A stretch of 64,000 nucleotides of DNA from Candidatus Sericytochromatia bacterium. GTDB taxonomy: Bacteria > Cyanobacteriota > Sericytochromatia > UBA7694. Location: NCBI GenBank assembly GCA_018780035.1, contig JADMKE010000047.1:7823-71822 (forward strand), read 5' to 3'. Positions 21,033-47,635 of the stretch are shown here, piece after piece (the stretch's first letter is position 1; every line of letters begins with the position of its first letter). Both the position numbers and the translations under genes were made by a program. The notes beneath the pieces were generated by a model, which saw only the letters and a list, made by a program, of their open reading frames with translations, was not told where the DNA came from and did not search any database.

Positions 21033-22226
21033 TCAAAAATACAACTCAAGCTGGGGCAAAGTCAGCCGTTTAAACACTGGTCGGTAGAGATCATTCCTGC
21101 GCAGCAAGGTTTCAAAATTGAGTGAATTGCAGGCATAACCCAGCCAAAGTTCTTCACCCCGTTTGCTCGCCTCTGAAAAAGCCGGATGGGCTTTGGCGGC
21201 ATAACAAAAGGTGTTTTTATCATAGTCGGGGCTTTCAGGCCTCATTTCGCTGTAAAAGGCGATTTGTTTGACCTGCGCTGTCCAGGGCCCTGTGAGCTGG
21301 GGAGCTGTGCGAATCACCACCTCGCGGCTAAAAAAAGCCGGATGGGTATGAACCATCACCCATTTTTGGCTGTTTTTGTCGAAGTGCAGCGAGGCCTCTG
21401 TTGCGCCTTCGGCTACGAGTATCTCTGCATCAGGGCCATCCAGGCCCGGCTTCCAGTGCTGATCTTGGCTAAAATAATGCAAAGGCCAGGGCGATTGGCC
21501 CAGATCACTGAGCGCGACCCGGTTTAGAATCAGGGGGTGTTTTTTGCTTGGCTCTTCGCGAAAGCTCAGCAGGTAGAGAAAGTCCCCAGATTTAACTATG
21601 GCAATGCCGGGAATGGTGGTCTGGCTTTGACTCAGGGGGCGGTAGCTGATCTGCCAACGCAAAGGATGATCGCTGTAATTGACGATTTCCGCCACAGTTA
21701 CGCCTTTGATTGCAAAATTAAAGCCATTTTCTGGCCCTGAGGTGGTCTCCACTTCTTCCAGCAAGAGATAGAGTTTACCCCCCTGCTCAAAGCCATGGAT
21801 CGGCCAGTATTTGCGCTGGTGTGAGGCTTGAGGCGGGGGCAGAAAAAAGGCGGCAGGCAAGCGTTCAAGGTGTTTACCCACCAGCGTGGTACTTTGGCGA
21901 AAAAAATAATCGACCTCAAAACCCTCGGGCCCACATTCGGAAATCCCCAGGCTATTGGCCACCATGGTGGCTTGGGTGCGGTTGGGGCCTGCTTCTTTGT
22001 TGTCAAAATCCAAAACAAAGCTGTCTCCAAAGAGCCAGACCGTTTTGCCAGACAGCAGAGGCACTGAAAAGATCCCATCACCCCCTCGCCAGTTTTGCTT
22101 AAAAGGAAAAAAAGGCATGCAGGGAATCTCTGCCCGCGCAGGCAGATTCAAGGCAACCAGTGAAGCTGCAAGTGAAGCTGCAAGGAGCAGGGCTGAGCAG
22201 ACGCGCTTAGAGAACCGGGCTGTCAT
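21033..22226 (-). CDS. secreted protein, DUF4185-like (beta-propeller glycosidase-like) candidate
   Basis: Signal peptide. WRGGDGIFSVPLLSGKTVWLFGDSFV resembles the DUF4185-type N-terminal motif. The family call is tentative. Confidence 0.45.
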   Translation of the reverse strand: MTARFSKRVCSALLLAASLAASLVALNLPARAEIPCMPFFPFKQNWRGGDGIFSVPLLSGKTVWLFGDSFVLDFDNKEAGPNRTQATMVANSLGISECGPEGFEVDYFFRQSTTLVGKHLERLPAAFFLPPPQASHQRKYWPIHGFEQGGKLYLLLEEVETTSGPENGFNFAIKGVTVAEIVNYSDHPLRWQISYRPLSQSQTTIPGIAIVKSGDFLYLLSFREEPSKKHPLILNRVALSDLGQSPWPLHYFSQDQHWKPGLDGPDAEILVAEGATEASLHFDKNSQKWVMVHTHPAFFSREVVIRTAPQLTGPWTAQVKQIAFYSEMRPESPDYDKNTFCYAAKAHPAFSEASKRGEELWLGYACNSLNFETLLRRNDLYRPVFKRLTLPQLELYF

Positions 22227-23997
22227 TGCCCAAGAGCTTTTTGCGAATCAGGCTGATCGGCGGCAGGCCTTCGCTTAAAAAGGCATCGTGAAATTCGCGC
22301 AGCGAGAAATCTTGGCCTTTGAGGGCCTGGTAATCCACCCGCAGTTTCTGCAGCATGAGTTTGCCCAGGGTGTAGTAGAGATAAGTGGGATCTGAGGTCC
22401 CTCGCCGGGTTTCGAGCAGGGCGTTGGTGCGCGATTGGTAGCCCTCTTTGACAAAGAATTCCACACCTTCTGCAAAGCTCATCTGGCCGGTGTGCATTTG
22501 AATGCCAACAATATAACGGGCATTGCGCAGCAGGGCGTCTTGCAATTGGCCCAAACGCAGCTTCAGATCGCCTTCTCCGTAGCCCTCATCGAGCATCATC
22601 TGCTCACAATAATGGGCCCAGCCTTCAAAATTGCTGGCCGCAGAGAGAATCTGCCGCACCTTGCTGGGGGCCTTTTGGGCCCAGAGAAACTGGATATAAT
22701 GGCCGGGATACGCTTCGTGAATCGCGGTTGAAATAATCACGCCATAGTTAAAACCCGCCATATACTCCGCAATATCTGCCGCTGGCCAAGTCGGATCGGG
22801 CAGGGTCACATTAAAATACGCTTCGGTGGCTTTGGCTTCAAACGGGCCGGGTGTGTCCATCGAGGCAAAGGTCATGGCCCGCATAAACGAAGGGGTCTCA
22901 GCAATCAATGGCGGCACCTGGGAGGGAATGGTGAGGATCTGCTTTTGAACAATAAAGTCCTGAATGCCGCCCAGCACGTCTCTGAAGCTCTGCAAGAGCT
23001 TTTCGGGTGGGGGGTGATCCTTGCCCAAGGCTGCCAAGACCTGTTCCGGGCTGCTTTGGGGATCCAGTTGGGCCGCAACGGCTTTAAATTGGGCCTGGTT
23101 TTTGCGCAAATCTGCATAACCAATTTCCAACAGGCGGGGCAGAGGCAAATCCACCTTTTCATCGTAAAGCAGTTTTTGGCGGTAATTCTCAGCCCCAATC
23201 CGAAAATCTCCCTTTGAACGCGGCAGCAAATCGCTTTTGAGCCAATCCAAATAGGCCTTGAGTTCGGCGATCACCTTTTGGTTGCTTGCCTGAAATTGGG
23301 CCCATAAAACGGGATCTTTAACATCTTTAAACGCTGCGGGCACATCGTTTTCAAAGAAGGGTATCATGTCCGGGATTTGTTCAATCGCGACCTCGGTGAA
23401 GATTTTGGGCGGGTTCTTGAGATTGGCACGGGCGGCGGCAAAAATGGCGGGAATTTGTTGTTCACGGGCGATGACCGCTTTTAAGCGTTGCTTTGGCGGC
23501 GCAAAACTGCGCGAGATCAAGGTGTAGATGGTTTCGCTGGCCCCACTTGCATAGTTGTCGGGGTTCTTTTCCCAGCCCCGGATCTGTTCGGCTTCGAGCA
23601 ATTGCGCGTTTAAATGGGAGATCAGCAATTCGCGATCTTCGGCTTCCAGGGGGCTGAGTTGTGCCTGCGAAAAGGCGCCCAACTCTTTCAGATAGCGTTT
23701 ATTATCGCGGATATCTGCTTCCACTGCGGCCTTGCTGAAATCTTCCAAAACATGGTCAAAGTCGTGTTTTCCGAGATAAGTGGCATAGGTGGGGTTGTTT
23801 TGCAGATAGTCGACAAAATAGCGTTCGACCCAGGCTTGCCATTTGGGGTTGGTAAGCGGGCTGGCCACTTTGCTGGCCATGCGGACAGGGTCTGCGATGG
23901 GCAAAGTCTGGGCCAAACCCGCAGGAGCAGAGCTGGCGCCGAAACACAGCAGAAGGGCCAAGGCCGAAAGACGTGAAGGTAAACGCTTTAAGAGCAT
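22207..23997 (-). CDS. DUF885 family protein (secreted paralogue)
   Basis: 596 aa with a signal peptide (LLLCFGASSAPAGLA) and the HEAYPGHYIQ motif. Collinear with the 6892..8634 product. Confidence 0.8.
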   Translation of the reverse strand: MLLKRLPSRLSALALLLCFGASSAPAGLAQTLPIADPVRMASKVASPLTNPKWQAWVERYFVDYLQNNPTYATYLGKHDFDHVLEDFSKAAVEADIRDNKRYLKELGAFSQAQLSPLEAEDRELLISHLNAQLLEAEQIRGWEKNPDNYASGASETIYTLISRSFAPPKQRLKAVIAREQQIPAIFAAARANLKNPPKIFTEVAIEQIPDMIPFFENDVPAAFKDVKDPVLWAQFQASNQKVIAELKAYLDWLKSDLLPRSKGDFRIGAENYRQKLLYDEKVDLPLPRLLEIGYADLRKNQAQFKAVAAQLDPQSSPEQVLAALGKDHPPPEKLLQSFRDVLGGIQDFIVQKQILTIPSQVPPLIAETPSFMRAMTFASMDTPGPFEAKATEAYFNVTLPDPTWPAADIAEYMAGFNYGVIISTAIHEAYPGHYIQFLWAQKAPSKVRQILSAASNFEGWAHYCEQMMLDEGYGEGDLKLRLGQLQDALLRNARYIVGIQMHTGQMSFAEGVEFFVKEGYQSRTNALLETRRGTSDPTYLYYTLGKLMLQKLRVDYQALKGQDFSLREFHDAFLSEGLPPISLIRKKLLGNDSPVL

Positions 23998-40437: not shown

Positions 40438-41652
40438 ATGAAAATTCTGTATTTAACCCCTTTTTTGCCCTATCCCCTCAATCGCGGGACCCATCAACGG
40501 GTTTATCACCTGCTCAAAAGCCTCGCATCGGCCCACCAGGTAACGCTTTTTTCGCTTGATCCAGACAATCAAGCTGCAGCCCATCAGGGTGTGTTTGAAG
40601 CGCTCTGTGAGCGGGTCATTCGCAGGCCGGTTACACTCAACCCCTGGCGAAATTTGTCCCAACGGCTGTTTTCACCCCAGCCCGAAACCATGTTCCATTG
40701 GGATTTGCCGGCTATTCGTCAAGAGTTGGGTGAGATACTGAATTCAGAAGACTTTGACCTGATTTTTGCTGAAGATATTTGTATGACTCAGTACATCTAC
40801 GACCTCATGCCTGCCGGGGCAAAACAGATCCCTGTCATTACCGATCGCAATCGTGTGGATTTGGAGTTTATGCAAGAGAGTTGGCCCTATTTAAAAGGGC
40901 TGAGATCCCGTGCCAATTTTGCAGAAAACTACCTCAAACTCGAACGACTTGAACGCCGCCTGGCGAAACGATTTCCCAACCAAGTCGTGTGTTCACCCGA
41001 AGATGCTGATTTTGTCAAACAGCAATTGGATATCAACCCTTGGATCATCGGCAATGGCGTCGATCACCATTATTTCAAGCCCCAAAGCTGGTCCCGTGAA
41101 GGGGATGTGCCCGTGCTCTGTTTTACAGGGGCCATGGACTACGCCCCCAATGCCGAAGGCATTACCTGGTTTATGCAAGAAGTCCACCCGCTTTTGCTCA
41201 AAAAAATCGGGAAGTTTAAATTGCGGATCGTGGGACTCAACCCCGGACCTGAGATTCGGGCTTTTGAAGCTGTTGAGGGGGTTGAAGTGACGGGCGGTGT
41301 TCCGGATATTCGCCCCGCTTATGCTGCCTGTGATGTTTATATTGCCCCGATTCGCATCGGCGGTGGCACCCGGCTCAAAATCATCGAAGCCATGGCAATG
41401 GGCAAACCAGTGGTATCCACCCCCACAGGGGCGCAAGGCCTGGGTTTGACAGAAGGCCTGCAAGTGCGCTACGCCGAAAAATCCGTGGCTTTTGCCGCCC
41501 AGATTGGCGATCTCTTGGCCCATCCGGGAGTACGTGAAAGAATGGCCCAAGCAGGCATGAAGCACATCCTCAAACACTTTACCTGGGAGAGTTTGGGACA
41601 AAAATTAGTGCTAAGAGTAGAACAAGCAATGACTTTGGCCAAGGTGGCATAA
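40438..41652 (+). CDS. GT4 glycosyltransferase
   Basis: N-terminal MKILYLTPFLPYPLNRGTHQRVYHLL. The C-terminal GT1-type domain includes RLKIIEAMAMGKPVVSTPTGAQG. Confidence 0.85.
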   Translation: MKILYLTPFLPYPLNRGTHQRVYHLLKSLASAHQVTLFSLDPDNQAAAHQGVFEALCERVIRRPVTLNPWRNLSQRLFSPQPETMFHWDLPAIRQELGEILNSEDFDLIFAEDICMTQYIYDLMPAGAKQIPVITDRNRVDLEFMQESWPYLKGLRSRANFAENYLKLERLERRLAKRFPNQVVCSPEDADFVKQQLDINPWIIGNGVDHHYFKPQSWSREGDVPVLCFTGAMDYAPNAEGITWFMQEVHPLLLKKIGKFKLRIVGLNPGPEIRAFEAVEGVEVTGGVPDIRPAYAACDVYIAPIRIGGGTRLKIIEAMAMGKPVVSTPTGAQGLGLTEGLQVRYAEKSVAFAAQIGDLLAHPGVRERMAQAGMKHILKHFTWESLGQKLVLRVEQAMTLAKVA

Positions 41653-41787
41653 ATTGTTTGTGATACGCCCATTGCAGCACTATTTAACTGTCTAACTTTA
41701 CTGGATTTATTGACTTTTTTCGTGTAAACTTCAACCCTGAGTTATCTAAAAAAGTTAAGTTAAAATGTGTGAGTCAGTTAAGTAAGT

Positions 41788-42398
41788 TTGACAAATGGGC
41801 GCAATATGTTTAGTTTAAAGAATCAAAAGCAGTTTTGTCTTCAACGGTTTGTCTATACGCGGCACATTTTGCAAGCCTTGGTTGATTTTCATGAAAGTGG
41901 AAAACTGCACCTGGCTTTAACACCCGCCCATATTTTAATCGATGGGGATTCGGTTCAAATTATTGCTGCCCTTGATTCTGAAAAATTACTCTATGATGCG
42001 CAGCGCTACGCAGCCCCTGAGTTACTCGTTCAAGTGGGAATGAGCGAACAGACAGATTTGTATGCCCTGGGGAGGATTCTGTTTGAGGCTTGGTCAGGGG
42101 TTTTGCCTGATGAGAAGGAGAACCCGCTGCCCAGTTTGACGCAATTTTTACCTGAATTGCCCCCTGGTTTGGACCGGTTTTTCCAAACTTTAATGGCCCC
42201 CCAGCTTCAAGACAGATATCCAAATGTAGAAAGCGATCTTTATGCTTTTTAGGCGTTTGAGGCTTATTTTTATCCTTTAGAGAGACGTTCTTTGTTATTG
42301 GGCGCAAACAGGAATTAAAGCAACTGAATAATTGGCTTGATGCCTCCAACCGTGGCATTTATTTTATTCAGGGCCAGCCTGGTGTCGGCAAATCTGCT
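41788..42398 (+). pseudogene. decayed 5' portion of a kinase-AAA-GAF-histidine-kinase gene: a degenerate protein-kinase C-lobe, an in-frame TAG, and a frameshift before the P-loop
   Basis: ORF 41788..42252 aligns to Ser/Thr kinase subdomains VIa-XI, with HRD replaced by LALTPAHIL and DFG replaced by AALDS. It has no N-lobe. The TAG is at 42250. The P-loop GQPGVGKSAL is encoded at 42372..42401 in the frame of the downstream ORF, upstream of any canonical start. Confidence 0.5.
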
Positions 42399-45300
42399 TT
42401 GCTCCAAGAAGTTTTATCTCAAAGAACTTATTTGAGTGGTAAATTTCAGCAGGCCATGAAATATACCCCCTCATATGCTGTTTTTATTGAGTCAATGCAG
42501 TCATTTTTGCGTTTTTTACTCAGTCTTTCTCTGTCTGAACGTTTGGTTTGGAAAGAAATTTTCCAAATTGAAATGGGCCTTTCCGCTCAAGTCCTTTTTG
42601 AAACCCTGCCTGAACTGGCTCTCATTTTAAATGAGACCAGCCAGACCCAGTTCAGTGGCAATTTGATCTTGGAAAATCCCTTTAACAGGGCTTTTGCCCA
42701 ATTATGGCAAGTGGTCAGTTCTCACCAACAGCTGATCGTCTGGTTAGATGATGTTCAATGGGCCGATGACAGTTCTTTGCATTTTTTCCGACAACTCTTC
42801 CCCTTAAATATCCTGTGGTTGATCAGCGGCAGAGAGATACAGCTCTTTCGGCAACAGAGTGAAAGTTCAGGGGATTTGAACGCTGAATTACTTGTGCTCA
42901 GTTCTTTCGAACCCCAATCCACCCATCTCTATTTGCAAGAAGCTTTGGGGGCCAGTTTTTCAGAAACAGAGTCTCTGTTGCCCGTTTTACAGGATTTAAC
43001 CCTAGGCAATCCGCTTTATCTTAAAGTGAGTTTGGAAGATTTTAAACGCCGAAAATTATTGACCTTTCAACCTGAACTTGGGGTTTGGAGCTTGAATTGG
43101 TCTGGTGAAAGGACCCAAAACAGTTTCTCAGAACAGATTTTACAAGACATGATTGGGCGCCAAGTGGCCGCTTTTTCTGAGCTTGAAAGGGCATTATTGG
43201 GGATCGCAGCTTGTTTGGGAGCCCGTTTTGCATATCTGGCACTCAAAACCTGTTTTTTGCAAATGCTGACAAATAGCTCTGTCACAGATTTGAAACAGGC
43301 GTTGTCTACCTGTGTGCGTGCAGGTTTTTTGCATCTCGATCAACCTGGCTTTTACCGTTTTGCCCATGATCGCCTGCACGAATGGATTCATTTGAGCTTT
43401 TCAGCCGAAGAAAGCACCCAATTTCGTTTAAAAACAGGCCGCGTGCTTTTGAATTTAAAAGGTCCACACTCATTGACGGGCTTGGCCGAAACCTTAAACC
43501 CTGTATATCAATCCCTTGATCCAGAAGAATTGACTTTGTTAATCGATGCCAATTTGGAATTGAGTGATCAGGCCTTAAAAAAAGGGGCCCAGGCAGAAGC
43601 GTTGGCGTTTTTAAGTGCTGTCCAATTGATGGCCTCAGAACAGCCTTTCAGTCCTGAACAAGAAATTAAAACTCTGGCCTTGATGGCTTTTTTGGATTAT
43701 CTCAAAGCAGATTTAAGCAATTCAGAACGCAAGCTCAAAAGTCTATTAAACAAATTCCCCGATGCCAATTTAACCGATGTCTATGTGCTGCTGGTGATCC
43801 TCTACACCCAGCAGAATCGCTATCAAGAAGCGGTTGAATTTACGGTGACGATCTTAAACCAAGCCGGGTTAGCGATTTCCCAGGAACCGGCCCAAATCGA
43901 AGCCCTGTTTTCAGGCTGTATTCAAACACTCAGCCGGTCGGTGCCCTCAGATCTATTGGATTTGAGTCTGCGCCCATCGAGCCCGGCTTTTGCAGATATC
44001 TTGCGTTTATTTGCTACATCGACCGCTGCTTTTTACAATTATCAACCTGAATTATTTGGGCTCTATGTTTTGTATTTCCTCGACCAAATTTTGCACCATC
44101 AGGGCGCGCCACAGTCCGGGATTATTTATGCTGCCAGTATTATTCTGGTAATGGCCCAAACAGACTTGGTATCTGTGGCCTGTTTGTTAGCCGATGGAGG
44201 CCTTTTAACGGCCCAGAGCTGGGGTCATTTGGATGAGTTGGCGGTTTTACATTGCGTGATTGGCGATTTTTTGGCCCCTTGGCACCAGGCCTATCGGCAG
44301 GCCTGTTCACATTTTGAAAGTTCCTGGCGGGCAGGATTACAGTCGGGGAATTTGCAATTTGCGGGTTATTCTCGCGTGTTTAAAGGGGCAAATCTGTTTT
44401 TATCAGGGTTTTCCCTTGAAGACTTCCAAACCAAAGAACTTCCTGCCATGTTGGCTTTTAATGCAACCATCCAAAATTTTTCTCCATTGGATGGCTTAAC
44501 TGGATATGCCTTACTTTTACATGCCCTGCGGCAAGAAGCTGAATGTTTTGACCTGCCGAATCAAACGGAGGCCGATTATATTGCGCTGATTCGGGGTCGG
44601 GGAAGTCAAGCGGATTTGTCCAGGTATTTTTCGTTTAAAGCATTTGTGCTCTTGCTTTATGGTCAGATTGAAACTGCGGCAGAAAACTATCGTCAAGCTG
44701 ACAATCTGCGCTATTTACAGGGTTCAGTGGTCAATGTCTTACATCTGTTTACGGGCTTAATTCTGGCTTTGCGCCGGGGTGAAAGTTTAGACACAGACGC
44801 CCATGCGGCTTCATTGCAAAAACTCAATCAATTGGCAGAGCGCTGCCCCGAAAACTTTGGCCCACTCATGGCTTTGGTGATTGCAGAAGATCCCGCTCAG
44901 GCCAATCAACCACGCATTGAAGCCTATGAAAGGGCTGTGACCCTTGCCAGGCAAGAAAAACTCAGCCATATCGAGGCCTTTGCCCTGGAATCTGAGTCCC
45001 GTTTTTGGCAACTTCAGGCTTTGCCCCGTTTGGCCGAACGGGCACTTTTTGAATCTGCTTTGGCGTATCAAAGCTGGGGAGCGACTGAAAAAGTCAATCA
45101 ATTATTGTTGCAATTTCCGCAACGATTAAAATTGCAGTACGAACAACATGTGCAACTTCCACATGCCGATTTGGATTTGGATCTTTTGATGCAAATTTCT
45201 GCTCTCTTTGCCCAGACCACCAAACAAGAAGAACTCTTGGCTGCGATTATGACGATCTTACAGACCCAAACAAAAGCCGAAAAAATGGCTTTGTTTATTG

Positions 45301-46439
45301 CCCCCGAAACAGCCACAGAAGTCACGGAGTGGACCTGTTTGGCCCATTTTGACCAAGGACAATTGCATTTGCAAGAGCGACCCCTCGATGCCGTTTGGCC
45401 CTTGGCTTTGATTCGCTATGTGGTTCAGACCTTGCGGATTGTGCGTTTGCCTCGGCATCTGGAGGAGTTGAATCAGATTCCTGAGGCCCGGAAACTCCAG
45501 GGTTCTCACTTTTTTCTGCCTTTGATTTTGCAAAACCGGCTGACGGGACTGATCTATCTTTGTTCAGAAAGCAATCCAGAGGCCTTTAATCTGCGCTCAG
45601 AACTTCTGCTCAAAGCCCTGGCTGGACATATTGCCAGCTCTTTGACCAATGCCCGAATGTATCACCAATTGGAAGCGACGATATTGGAGCGCACCCAGGA
45701 TTTACAGAAGGCCAATCACGGACTCACTCTTTTGCTGGAAGAGCGGCAACATGTGATTGCCATGGCGGCTCACGATCTTAAACACCCATTGGGCACCTTG
45801 ACCTTGGGGGTTTCTTTGCTCGAACAGATGCATGAACAATTAAGTCCTCAAGACCGGCAAGCGGCTTTTCTGAACTTAAAAAAGACCCTGTCTGACATGA
45901 ATGGCAATACCGAACGCTTGCTGCTGGCTGAAAGCTTGGATTTTGGCGGTCTTGAAGTGCATGTGCAACCCATCTCCCCCAAAGCTGATATTTTGCCCTG
46001 GTTCAGCCCTTATCAATTCCGGGCACAGGAAAAACAAATTGAATTCCAATTGTTTGGTTTTGAAACCCCTCAATGCATCTATACAGATCCGATTTTGTTT
46101 CGGCACATAGTTGAAAATCTCTGTTCAAATGCGCTCAATTTTTCACCCTTTAAGCGCAAGGTCAGGCTGTTCTTTGAGTGTTCGGCTGAGACCTTTGCCT
46201 TTGCTGTCGAAGACCAAGGGCCCGGTATTCCCGTGGATGAGCAGCCCAAATTATTTCAAAAATTTTCCAGATTAACGCCTCGGCCCACGGCTGGGGAAAG
46301 TTCTAGTGGATTGGGGCTGTTTATTGTCAAACAATTGGTGGAGATATTCCAGGGAAAGATTGTTGTTGATTCGGAGATTGGGCGGGGAACCCGGATCCAG
46401 GTACAGCTTCCCAATGCTCACAAGAACCTCACAATTTGA
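42399..46439 (+). CDS. large sensor histidine kinase (AAA/STAND-like ATPase region - helical repeats - GAF - HisKA - HATPase_c)
   Basis: Walker-B-like LIVWLDDVQWADDSSL, then a long helical region. The GAF-like segment is around LLMQISALFAQT...LPLILQNRLTGLIYL. H-box MAAHDLKHPLGTL; ATPase GLGLFIVKQLVE...GRGTRIQV. The frame is open from 42261. The start is uncertain. Confidence 0.75.
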   Translation: MLQEVLSQRTYLSGKFQQAMKYTPSYAVFIESMQSFLRFLLSLSLSERLVWKEIFQIEMGLSAQVLFETLPELALILNETSQTQFSGNLILENPFNRAFAQLWQVVSSHQQLIVWLDDVQWADDSSLHFFRQLFPLNILWLISGREIQLFRQQSESSGDLNAELLVLSSFEPQSTHLYLQEALGASFSETESLLPVLQDLTLGNPLYLKVSLEDFKRRKLLTFQPELGVWSLNWSGERTQNSFSEQILQDMIGRQVAAFSELERALLGIAACLGARFAYLALKTCFLQMLTNSSVTDLKQALSTCVRAGFLHLDQPGFYRFAHDRLHEWIHLSFSAEESTQFRLKTGRVLLNLKGPHSLTGLAETLNPVYQSLDPEELTLLIDANLELSDQALKKGAQAEALAFLSAVQLMASEQPFSPEQEIKTLALMAFLDYLKADLSNSERKLKSLLNKFPDANLTDVYVLLVILYTQQNRYQEAVEFTVTILNQAGLAISQEPAQIEALFSGCIQTLSRSVPSDLLDLSLRPSSPAFADILRLFATSTAAFYNYQPELFGLYVLYFLDQILHHQGAPQSGIIYAASIILVMAQTDLVSVACLLADGGLLTAQSWGHLDELAVLHCVIGDFLAPWHQAYRQACSHFESSWRAGLQSGNLQFAGYSRVFKGANLFLSGFSLEDFQTKELPAMLAFNATIQNFSPLDGLTGYALLLHALRQEAECFDLPNQTEADYIALIRGRGSQADLSRYFSFKAFVLLLYGQIETAAENYRQADNLRYLQGSVVNVLHLFTGLILALRRGESLDTDAHAASLQKLNQLAERCPENFGPLMALVIAEDPAQANQPRIEAYERAVTLARQEKLSHIEAFALESESRFWQLQALPRLAERALFESALAYQSWGATEKVNQLLLQFPQRLKLQYEQHVQLPHADLDLDLLMQISALFAQTTKQEELLAAIMTILQTQTKAEKMALFIAPETATEVTEWTCLAHFDQGQLHLQERPLDAVWPLALIRYVVQTLRIVRLPRHLEELNQIPEARKLQGSHFFLPLILQNRLTGLIYLCSESNPEAFNLRSELLLKALAGHIASSLTNARMYHQLEATILERTQDLQKANHGLTLLLEERQHVIAMAAHDLKHPLGTLTLGVSLLEQMHEQLSPQDRQAAFLNLKKTLSDMNGNTERLLLAESLDFGGLEVHVQPISPKADILPWFSPYQFRAQEKQIEFQLFGFETPQCIYTDPILFRHIVENLCSNALNFSPFKRKVRLFFECSAETFAFAVEDQGPGIPVDEQPKLFQKFSRLTPRPTAGESSSGLGLFIVKQLVEIFQGKIVVDSEIGRGTRIQVQLPNAHKNLTI

Positions 46440-46574
46440 GTTGATATTGAGGCTTTCAAGCCCCTCTACTCTTGAACTATGCCAAGTTCTGAATTAGCGT
46501 GATGATATTCGGACAATTGTGGTCTTTAATATTGCGGCCCTGAAATTTTATCAACTTGTTTTGAGGTACCTATT

Positions 46575-46976
46575 TTGGTTGGCGTTTATTCCCCTCTGGA
46601 GTCAGCTGAACCGATTGTTAATTTTTCTCCCGCTGAGTGTCTGAGTTATTCAGAAATTATTCTCAGAGCCAGTGAGCTTACTCCCTTTTTGCGCCAAGAG
46701 GTCAAACACAAACGTTTTGTGATGTTGTATTCCGATCCCTGTGATACGTTGATCATGACTTACGCAGCTCTGCTGGCAGAGCAGATTGCTATCTTGCAGG
46801 CCCCACTGAGTTCCCCTGAAGAGGGCCAATACCTTGAAGCATTGATGCAAAAATCGGGAATTCAAGCAGTGGTGACCTCTCATGAGTTAAAATCGTGTTT
46901 GGACAATTACGCTCCAGGTTTGGCTCAAAAAACAGAGGTTATTAGTTTTTCTCCTCAGCAAGCGCGCAAAAAATAA
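46575..46976 (+). CDS. 133-aa ORF resembling only the N-terminal subdomain of an adenylate-forming (ANL) enzyme; possible remnant
   Basis: LSYSEIILRASELTPFLRQEV..RFVMLYSDPCDTLIMTYAALLAEQIAILQAPL...ALMQKSGIQAVVTS follows the ANL N-terminal pattern, but the AMP-binding core is absent. The start is a TTG with GAGG 8 nt upstream. Confidence 0.35.
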   Translation: MVGVYSPLESAEPIVNFSPAECLSYSEIILRASELTPFLRQEVKHKRFVMLYSDPCDTLIMTYAALLAEQIAILQAPLSSPEEGQYLEALMQKSGIQAVVTSHELKSCLDNYAPGLAQKTEVISFSPQQARKK

Positions 46977-47635
46977 CCTTTTCCATACACTGTTTGAATC
47001 TGACATTGGGTGGGCCATTTTTTTAAGCGATTGCGCAAGCGATTAATATGGGTCTCAACCAAATGGGCATCCCTTTCTGGCAAAAAAGCCCCTCCCCAAA
47101 GATGGCTGTAAAGCTCGGATTTGGAAAGCAAATCAGGTGAATGAGCAAAAAAGATTTTTAAGAGTCTGTGTTCCATTTCTGAAAGGGACAGCGGCACCTG
47201 ATTGCAATAAAACAGATCTTGACTTTGATCTAAGCGCAGCAGGCCAATTTGTAAACAGGTATTATTCAGCAGATAAGCCCGCAATTGGGCTTTTACACGG
47301 GCCAATAATTCTCTGACATCAACGGGTTTGACAATATAGTCGTTGGCACCTGCTTCAAGGGCTTGAATTTTGGTCTCTACACTGCGTTCTGCCGAAAAAA
47401 TGATCACAGGGGTATTCCATTGATTGCGTATTTTTTGGCAGAGTTGAATCCCATTGCCATCGGGCAATTCCAAATCCAAGAGAATCAAATCAATTTTTTG
47501 GCAGGACAATTGTTTGAATCCCTCTGCACCCGTGACAGTTAAATGGGTTTGATACCCTTGGGTTTCGAGACTCATGCGCGTAAATGTTGCCAAACGCAAA
47601 TCGTCTTCAATAATTAAAATCGTCTGATCGCTCAT
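46955..47635 (-). CDS. OmpR/PhoB-family response regulator
   Basis: REC segment ILIIEDD...DLILLDLELPDGNG...K. The C-terminal winged helix reads LSEMEHRLLKIF...VETHINRLRNRL...IQTVYGKGY. Confidence 0.9.
   Translation of the reverse strand: MSDQTILIIEDDLRLATFTRMSLETQGYQTHLTVTGAEGFKQLSCQKIDLILLDLELPDGNGIQLCQKIRNQWNTPVIIFSAERSVETKIQALEAGANDYIVKPVDVRELLARVKAQLRAYLLNNTCLQIGLLRLDQSQDLFYCNQVPLSLSEMEHRLLKIFFAHSPDLLSKSELYSHLWGGAFLPERDAHLVETHINRLRNRLKKWPTQCQIQTVYGKGYFLRAC

Follow-up and report, generated by a model that had tools for sequence, protein, structure and literature searches.

The window analysed here is a stretch of 64,000 nucleotides (nt) from an uncultured Candidatus Sericytochromatia bacterium (GenBank assembly GCA_018780035.1, contig JADMKE010000047.1, positions 7,823 to 71,822 of the forward strand), and positions below refer to it. 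The assembly, searched under the label G000, comprises 64 contigs and 6.47 Mb, with a completeness of 94.8% and an N50 of 208 kb. In this notation the window is G000:C36:7823-71822, and contig C36 has 74,803 nt. On the plus strand, between 41788 and 46439, lies a gene for a putative cytoplasmic sensor, the coding sequence of which is interrupted by a stop codon and a shift of frame. The list of open reading frames (ORFs) has two entries for it, both on the plus strand and both with a TTG start: 41788..42252, of 154 amino acids (aa), and 42399..46439, of 1346 aa. The second entry agrees with a first-pass annotation of this DNA, in which 1346 codons were said to remain open downstream of the damage.

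Three-frame translation shows how the two parts are related. Frame A starts at ATG 41806 with MFSLKNQ..., continues via LHLALTPAHILIDGDSVQIIAALDS to ...DLYAF, and is closed by TAG at 42250-42252. The upstream piece (41806..42252, plus strand, 148 codons and the TAG) is a pseudokinase consisting of a C-lobe only, with its Pfam match at about 41854-42123. Past the TAG, frame A runs on as AFEAYFYPLERRSLLLGANRN and then reaches a stop. Frame B contains FFVIGRKQELKQLNNWLDASNRGIYFIQGQPGVGKSALLQEV and is open from 42264 to the stop at 46437-46439, which gives a stop-to-stop frame (42264..46439, plus strand) of 1391 codons and the stop. The passage from frame A to frame B is caused by deletion of a single T at 42294..42295, which is the sole indel with respect to the related genome G005 across 4.6 kb. 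The interruption of the frame by the TAG at 42250..42252 had already been noted in the first-pass annotation, as had the continued similarity beyond it, and both are borne out, the first by the translation and the second by the translation together with a comparison with the G005 ORF. The 1-nt frame change that it placed near 42303 is likewise real, but the alignments locate it in the T run at 42294/42295.

The downstream frame carries most of the protein. Pfam matches were found, in order, for AAA_16 (about 42294-42806, 72 bits), which includes the Walker A motif GQPGVGKS at 42372-42395 and is followed by a helical middle region; GAF (PF01590, about 45228-45644, residues 989-1127 of the frame, 25.4 bits against a cut-off of 22.4); HisKA (about 45744-45929); and HATPase_c (about 46086-46415, 83.8 bits, over its cut-off). 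HisKA is weak, its 18.1 bits falling short of the cut-off of 26.9, although the translation does contain AHDLKHPL. The order AAA, GAF, HisKA, HATPase proposed earlier is thus the one found.

The position of the start codons is important here. A scan found no ATG, GTG or TTG in frame B between 42264 and 42399, and the sole potential starts in this interval are the near-cognate codons ATT 42297, CTG 42324, ATT 42357 and ATT 42366. The first canonical start of frame B is TTG 42399..42401 (plus strand), which is 3' of Walker A, and the recorded gene call begins further on, at ATG 42456 (plus strand), to give the product P0119 of 1327 aa. Because only near-cognate codons precede TTG 42399, Walker A lies upstream of every canonical start, as the first-pass annotation had maintained. 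The P-loop is therefore encoded but lies outside the canonical-start product here, while it lies within the product in intact orthologues.

The kinase part of the upstream piece is incomplete, and this had been counted as the first of three lesions. Its Pkinase match covers only positions 103-201 of the 263 in the profile, at 28.6 bits against a cut-off of 31.7, and in an alignment to solved kinases HLALTPAHIL stands opposite HRDLKPENIL. There is no DFG, no N-lobe and no ATP site in the kinase part, either here or in any of the close orthologues. The genome's own full-length paralogue (L002:598-6573, 1992 aa, Pkinase-AAA_16-GAF-HisKA-HATPase-REC) has IHKDLNPANILI and LIDFGLS at the matching places. 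The Pkinase match is just as partial in the intact orthologue P0127 and in the relative P0005, which has 56% identity, 1550 aa, an N-terminus reading MFTL..., and the motif retained as LHLALTPGHIL. All orthologues start at the same ATG, equivalent to 41806, with MFSL..., and P0005 again fits the pattern MF(S/T)L. Since the absence of the N-lobe is common to all intact orthologues, it is not damage to this copy. The missing N-lobe and the degenerate catalytic motifs are an ancestral and conserved architecture.

The half-kinase is moreover under selection. The ratio of non-synonymous to synonymous substitution rates (dN/dS), calculated by the Nei-Gojobori method by segment for all six pairs formed by the window and its three congeners, is 0.06-0.08 in the pseudokinase segment in every pair, and 0.06-0.09 in the GAF-histidine kinase segment. 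Because its dN/dS is as low as that of the GAF-histidine kinase segment, the half-kinase can be regarded as a selected domain. The absence of the N-lobe and the reading LALTPAHIL at the HRD position, both reported in the first-pass annotation, therefore hold as observations but not as a lesion. The count of three has to be reduced to two, the stop codon and the deletion, because the truncated, dead kinase half is conserved and selected.

Relatives of the gene were sought in 40 other genomes (41 with G000) at a threshold of E<=1e-60, and matches were obtained in 9 of the 40 (10 of 41 counting G000). A 90%-identical orthologue is present in three of the five other genomes of the same genus, namely G005, G002 and G003, although the G003 copy is split by a contig end. 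At the same threshold there was no match in the congeneric G001, and only a 26% relative in G004. In G005, G002 and G003 the gene is an open frame of 1552-1571 aa, a single ORF with 90% amino-acid identity to the downstream frame. The 90% protein cluster holds six distinct intact sequences of 1544 aa; two of the six, P0126 and P0004, are 99% identical to the window product. The first-pass annotation had allowed for orthologues with the same two-ORF layout and conserved independent starts; the orthologues are single ORFs.

Both frame-disrupting changes are absent from all three congeners. In the DNA alignment these have CAA (TTT CAA GC. in 3/3) opposite TTT TAG GCG in the window, relatives in general having CAG or CAA (Gln) at the site of the premature TAG (42250..42252, plus strand), and they have TTT(A/G)TTT(A/G)T opposite TTTG-TTAT, that is, one more T. 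A closer comparison came from Logan contigs of four sequencing runs from four studies (labelled soil, wastewater, groundwater and 'organism A') over 41600-43000. With ~98.6-99% identity to the window (mismatches at about 1.1-1.4% of positions), these contigs are taken to come from other strains of the same species. C is found at 42250 in all four, and an additional T behind 42294 in all three that are informative (X2, X4 and X9); that of X1 stops at 42296 and gives no information on the deletion. The stop codon and the lost T are peculiar to this assembly; its closest relatives have neither. One distant locus (26% identity) was the only match in metagenome contigs from JGI, and near-identical strain DNA was absent there. 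In the RNA runs X16-X18, <=0.08 of the words were present.

The two lesions are 45 nt apart, at the junction between the pseudokinase and P-loop domains, and they do not stand alone. Ten differences separate the window from all four runs over 1401 nt, and seven of these fall in a patch of 104 nt (42227..42330, plus strand), identified from the runs together with the congeners. The patch consists of window-private derived changes at 42227, 42236, 42250, 42283, 42285, the deletion at 42294/5, and 42330. At all seven sites the congeners agree with the runs, with the indel judged on the three informative runs. With events spread uniformly over the 1401 nt, finding 7 of 10 within these 104 nt has P=5.5e-5; if a 2.4-fold local hotspot is allowed, P is 9e-4. 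All six substitutions in the patch are from G/C to A/T (P ~0.0095 against a lineage background of 111/241). One of the changed codons, codon 160, goes from CGG to AGA, a two-step change that is synonymous by either path and does not look like random error.

These features suggest that the patch came from one multi-hit mutational event. A search of the organism's own genome (94.8% complete) found no donor for ectopic gene conversion, the best other match to the patch being 31 nt at 88% (E=0.006). It was also observed that the Logan contigs of X1 and X4 break within 42296-42313, the 18 nt adjoining the deletion site, which may mean that other populations too are mixtures of strains here, or that the spot is difficult to assemble in them.

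The remainder of the gene shows no sign of decay. dN/dS is 0.06-0.13 in every pair and segment, and 0.06-0.10 outside the AAA_16 segment. The dN/dS check on the downstream frame that had been proposed in the first-pass annotation gave 0.085-0.095 in pairs that include the window, compared to 0.083-0.091 in the other pairs, which indicates purifying selection as in the relatives. The window has 44 non-synonymous and 137 synonymous codon changes of its own (ratio 0.32), compared with 37 and 124 (ratio 0.30) that are private to G002. There is thus no sign of relaxed selection after the break, either in the private-change ratio or in dN/dS, which is not raised overall. This would not be unexpected for a break that is far more recent than the species branch. 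Compared with two alleles of the same species, the window has derived replacements at otherwise invariant sites at only six places: R11C, A141V, A144D, D176N, Q400L and Q1230K. Three of the six adjoin the lesions, and outside residues 141-176 there are just R11C, Q400L and Q1230K. Because the private divergence is so small, a frame of 1346 open codons is to be expected, and is not remarkable.

The explanation that we consider reasonably probable is that this is a real and very recent allele, null or severely crippled, of a conserved sensor gene. The gene is orthologous to a putative cytoplasmic sensor that is conserved in a Sericytochromatia/Blackallbacteria-like lineage, with the ancestral order C-lobe-only pseudokinase, AAA_16 (a STAND-type P-loop NTPase), helical repeats, GAF, HisKA and HATPase_c. 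In this strain it would have suffered a recent nonsense change from CAG to TAG together with the 1-nt deletion 45 nt downstream, the whole 104-nt patch having arisen in one multi-hit event, for example an error-prone repair tract. The products would then be an N-terminal fragment of 148 aa and at most a remainder starting 3' of Walker A, which would be unable to bind nucleotide. The downstream frame would still be open because it is too young to have decayed. We infer, in other words, that the lesions are present in the cells, that they had a single origin, and that function has been lost. Loss of the kinase part is tolerated in the family, as illustrated by a relative (G007, L012:1459-5523) from a different genus within the same family. 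This relative is a protein of 1355 aa with AAA_16, GAF and HATPase_c and no kinase remnant, 37% identical over residues 23-1387 of the downstream frame. Like the window copy it has AAA_16, GAF and HATPase_c, but unlike the window copy, which has no ATG before Walker A, it has its own ATG about 12 residues before the motif. The ORFs upstream of it have no kinase match.

The break was reproduced by a second assembly pipeline, since the exact products P0120 (148 aa) and P0119 (1327 aa) are recorded on two contigs, one from NCBI and one from Logan. A Logan contig of 74,753 nt bears the exact product of the neighbouring gene. The surrounding DNA is also in good order. The window is syntenic with G005:C33 at 91-94% identity, and 48 of 63 G005 ORFs match it at >=60%; among these, a genuine stop and frame change occur in the sensor gene alone. 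Five other flags were raised, of which three are stops in over-extended N-termini, one is a doubtful 60%-identical ORF, and one is a truncation at the window end.

Several observations weigh against a real and inactivated allele. The four runs compared all represent other strains, with no exact copy of the window among them. The Logan contig may share the reads of the metagenome-assembled genome (MAG), in which case the agreement excludes an artefact of binning or polishing but not one at the level of the reads. Two lesions 45 nt apart in a dense patch are also the pattern of a locally bad consensus, and the bias from G/C to A/T could reflect DNA damage in the library. The loss of function is deduced from the sequence, and in principle ATT 42297 or CTG 42324 could start a product that bears Walker A.

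Most of these points bear on the strongest alternative, namely an intact gene in the organism and, in the 104-nt patch, a locally erroneous or chimeric MAG consensus. The lesions are unique to this assembly, as would be expected of an error, and an error would account for seven private changes in so short a space, with the substitutions all in one direction and one deletion in a homopolymer. It would fit equally well with a gene that looks fully selected elsewhere, and the breaks in the X1 and X4 contigs at 42296-42313 imply a spot that is hard to assemble in other samples too. We nevertheless consider it unlikely. The exact same products occur on a second contig from another pipeline, and there is no other frame disruption in the 48 syntenic ORFs. 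Over 1401 nt the window differs from X2 by 1 indel and 19 substitutions, from which it follows that the assembly is not noisy for indels, and one of the changes in the patch is the two-step synonymous swap of an Arg codon.

If the lesions are real, the gene might alternatively have been split into two functional parts, namely a free C-lobe of 148 aa and a kinase-less AAA_16-GAF-histidine kinase sensor translated by re-initiation at ATT 42297 or CTG 42324, an arrangement that would resemble the naturally kinase-less relative. The break is exactly at a domain junction, the downstream frame is fully intact, and the N-terminus of the 1355-aa kinase-less relative in G007 aligns to residue 23, which is beside CTG 42324. 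Such a split is nonetheless distinctly improbable, given that no canonical start lies ahead of Walker A and that direct reading of the sequence found no obvious ribosome-binding site 5' of the ATT or the CTG. Within the species and the genus, no relative has two ORFs with conserved starts. A141V and A144D, both private to the window, are at residues that are invariant in all relatives, which is unlike a domain that is being preserved. Taking the crippled allele and the functional split together, we have good confidence that the allele is real.

Programmed recoding, in which read-through of the TAG followed by a -1 frameshift would give the full-length protein, can hardly be credited. The similarity does continue over both breaks, and the shift needed is in the common -1 direction, but the signals are present in none of the three congeners and none of the four runs. 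Direct reading from 42250 to the stop of frame A found no heptamer of the form X XXY YYZ, the RNA of 42240-42400 folds no better than shuffled sequences (z=+1.09), and the best Rfam match, to SraB, reaches 18.1 bits (E=0.77) where the gathering score is 130. TAG is moreover a normal stop genome-wide, ending 531 of 3217 open frames of >=300 codons. By the same count a reassignment of TAG is ruled out. The first-pass annotation had offered a very recent pseudogene, an assembly or sequencing error, and recoding or a non-canonical start as its options. The recent pseudogene is favoured, with lesions that are private and no decay; assembly error is weakened, and recoding is unsupported.

The window copy is not the only broken one. 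Within its 90% protein cluster, P0123 (406 aa, on a contig of 30,301 nt) has a break near codon 371, its last 33-36 residues matching an alternative frame of the orthologous DNA (26/36), and P0128 (347 aa, on a contig of 3,879 nt) has one near codon 1225, its first 28 residues coming from an alternative frame (23/28). Because the tail of the one and the head of the other are out of frame, these are independently frameshifted alleles. The G002 protein P0129 has a 1-nt deletion of its own (TT to T), 28 nt before the stop (orthologue L021, alignment column 4603, about window position 46408), by which the C-terminus is replaced and the product becomes 1563 aa. P0122 (1096 aa, on a contig of 6,690 nt) is an ambiguous case, beginning at a native internal Met. 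An out-of-frame head or tail was seen in none of the 46 other members of five neighbouring-gene clusters, which have plain truncations and start-site differences only. The chance of all four disrupted alleles being in this gene is about 0.009, a rough length-weighted figure that leaves kinship and assembly errors uncontrolled. The apparent excess of frameshifted alleles in this gene is thus a lead rather than a result. It is possible, though doubtful, that the sensor gene is inactivated again and again in wild populations, despite a long-term dN/dS of about 0.09.

The gene lies within an exopolysaccharide cluster, which includes ManC, three GT4 glycosyltransferases, a Bac_transf priming transferase and a Polysacc_synt_3 flippase. 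Neighbouring genes for signalling encode a REC-HisKA_3-HATPase protein, a REC-SpoIIE-HATPase_c_2 protein and an HTH_3 protein. A gene for an OmpR-type response regulator (46958..47635, minus strand, Response_reg and Trans_reg_C) is convergent with the sensor gene and is a candidate for its cognate partner, by position alone. On the same positional grounds the intact protein most likely has the putative role of sensing a cytoplasmic signal via its STAND and GAF domains and phosphorylating a regulator of polysaccharide genes. Downstream of the sensor gene there is a small plus-strand ORF within 46506-46976, of 133 aa from TTG 46575 and with no Pfam match, which runs into the 3' end of the response-regulator gene. 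A 155-aa ORF of G005 shares 81% identity with it, and the window has a stop inside the N-terminal extension of the G005 ORF.

Upstream, the gap to the preceding glycosyltransferase gene is only about 150 nt. It contains a block (41710..41747, plus strand) that begins TTGACT and is near-invariant in the window and the three congeners, while its flanks vary. This block may be a promoter or another regulatory region. The interval 41700-41806, which comprises the block and the stretch before the start codon, was observed to be more conserved among the four genomes than coding synonymous sites. A scan of the plus strand upstream of the gene for the sigma-70 consensus found no site, and the block has no second copy in the window with the patterns used and no Rfam match. 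Elsewhere in the window, start calls differ for a DUF885-family gene (22210-23997, minus strand), which is 557 aa in the NCBI record and 596 aa in the Logan one for the same DNA, a discrepancy of annotation and nothing more.

The architecture can be compared with that of known systems. Dual protein kinases of the cbSTKIII/HstK family are described, in passages of two papers (PMC2176072, PMC2853384), as having an N-terminal Ser/Thr kinase, at least one GAF domain and a C-terminal histidine kinase, with Alr2258 (HstK) of Anabaena, a filamentous cyanobacterium, as an example (PMC2176072, PMC2853384, citing Phalip et al. 2001). By that description, the sensor resembles HstK/cbSTKIII in that a single cytoplasmic polypeptide joins a kinase-type domain at its N-terminus to one or more GAF domains and ends in a histidine kinase. 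It differs in that only the C-lobe of the kinase is present and HRD reads HLA, and the window copy is in addition broken. Of the features that define the family, GAF is present, as are HisKA and HATPase_c, HisKA being weak, but there is no complete kinase domain. Because this defining domain is missing, the orthogroup is, on its domain composition, a derived variant of the dual-kinase family and not a plain member.

A search of proteins gave 115 hits at E<=1e-20, and outside the two close clusters identity is <=38% (a single case at 38%, covering 8% of the query). Most of these hits are full-length dual-kinase relatives with Pkinase, AAA_16, GAF and histidine kinase; they have 21-26% identity, mostly 1700-2500 aa, and a full Pkinase match. 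The same order of modules, AAA_16 included, is found in the Pseudomonas proteins named 'trifunctional serine/threonine-protein kinase/ATP-binding protein/sensor histidine kinase' by NCBI (P0076, P0080), some of which likewise lack a Pfam Pkinase hit. These differ from the present protein in being only about 22-23% identical, in their length of 1684-1713 aa, and in their full-size N-terminal region. Within the family, the series from the full paralogue to the C-lobe-only orthogroup to the kinase-less form of G007 suggests a stepwise loss of the kinase.

It is concluded that the finding is real but ordinary: a very young, strain-private broken allele or, less likely, a local error of the consensus. 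In the annotation the two ORFs are best marked as parts of a single disrupted gene, and the absence of the N-lobe is not to be treated as damage. The novelty is mild and consists of the half-kinase variant, the dense mutation patch, and the recurrent frameshifts of a regulator of an exopolysaccharide cluster, of which the latter two may merit a look at the population level, without altering the main conclusion. Recurrent inactivation, if true, would be in keeping with selection that has repeatedly, and depending on the niche, favoured switching off a regulator of surface-polysaccharide synthesis. Compared with the cyanobacterial dual kinases, the fusion of a half-kinase to a STAND-GAF-histidine kinase sensor departs modestly in architecture, and it comes from a group, the non-photosynthetic Sericytochromatia, that has been little studied.

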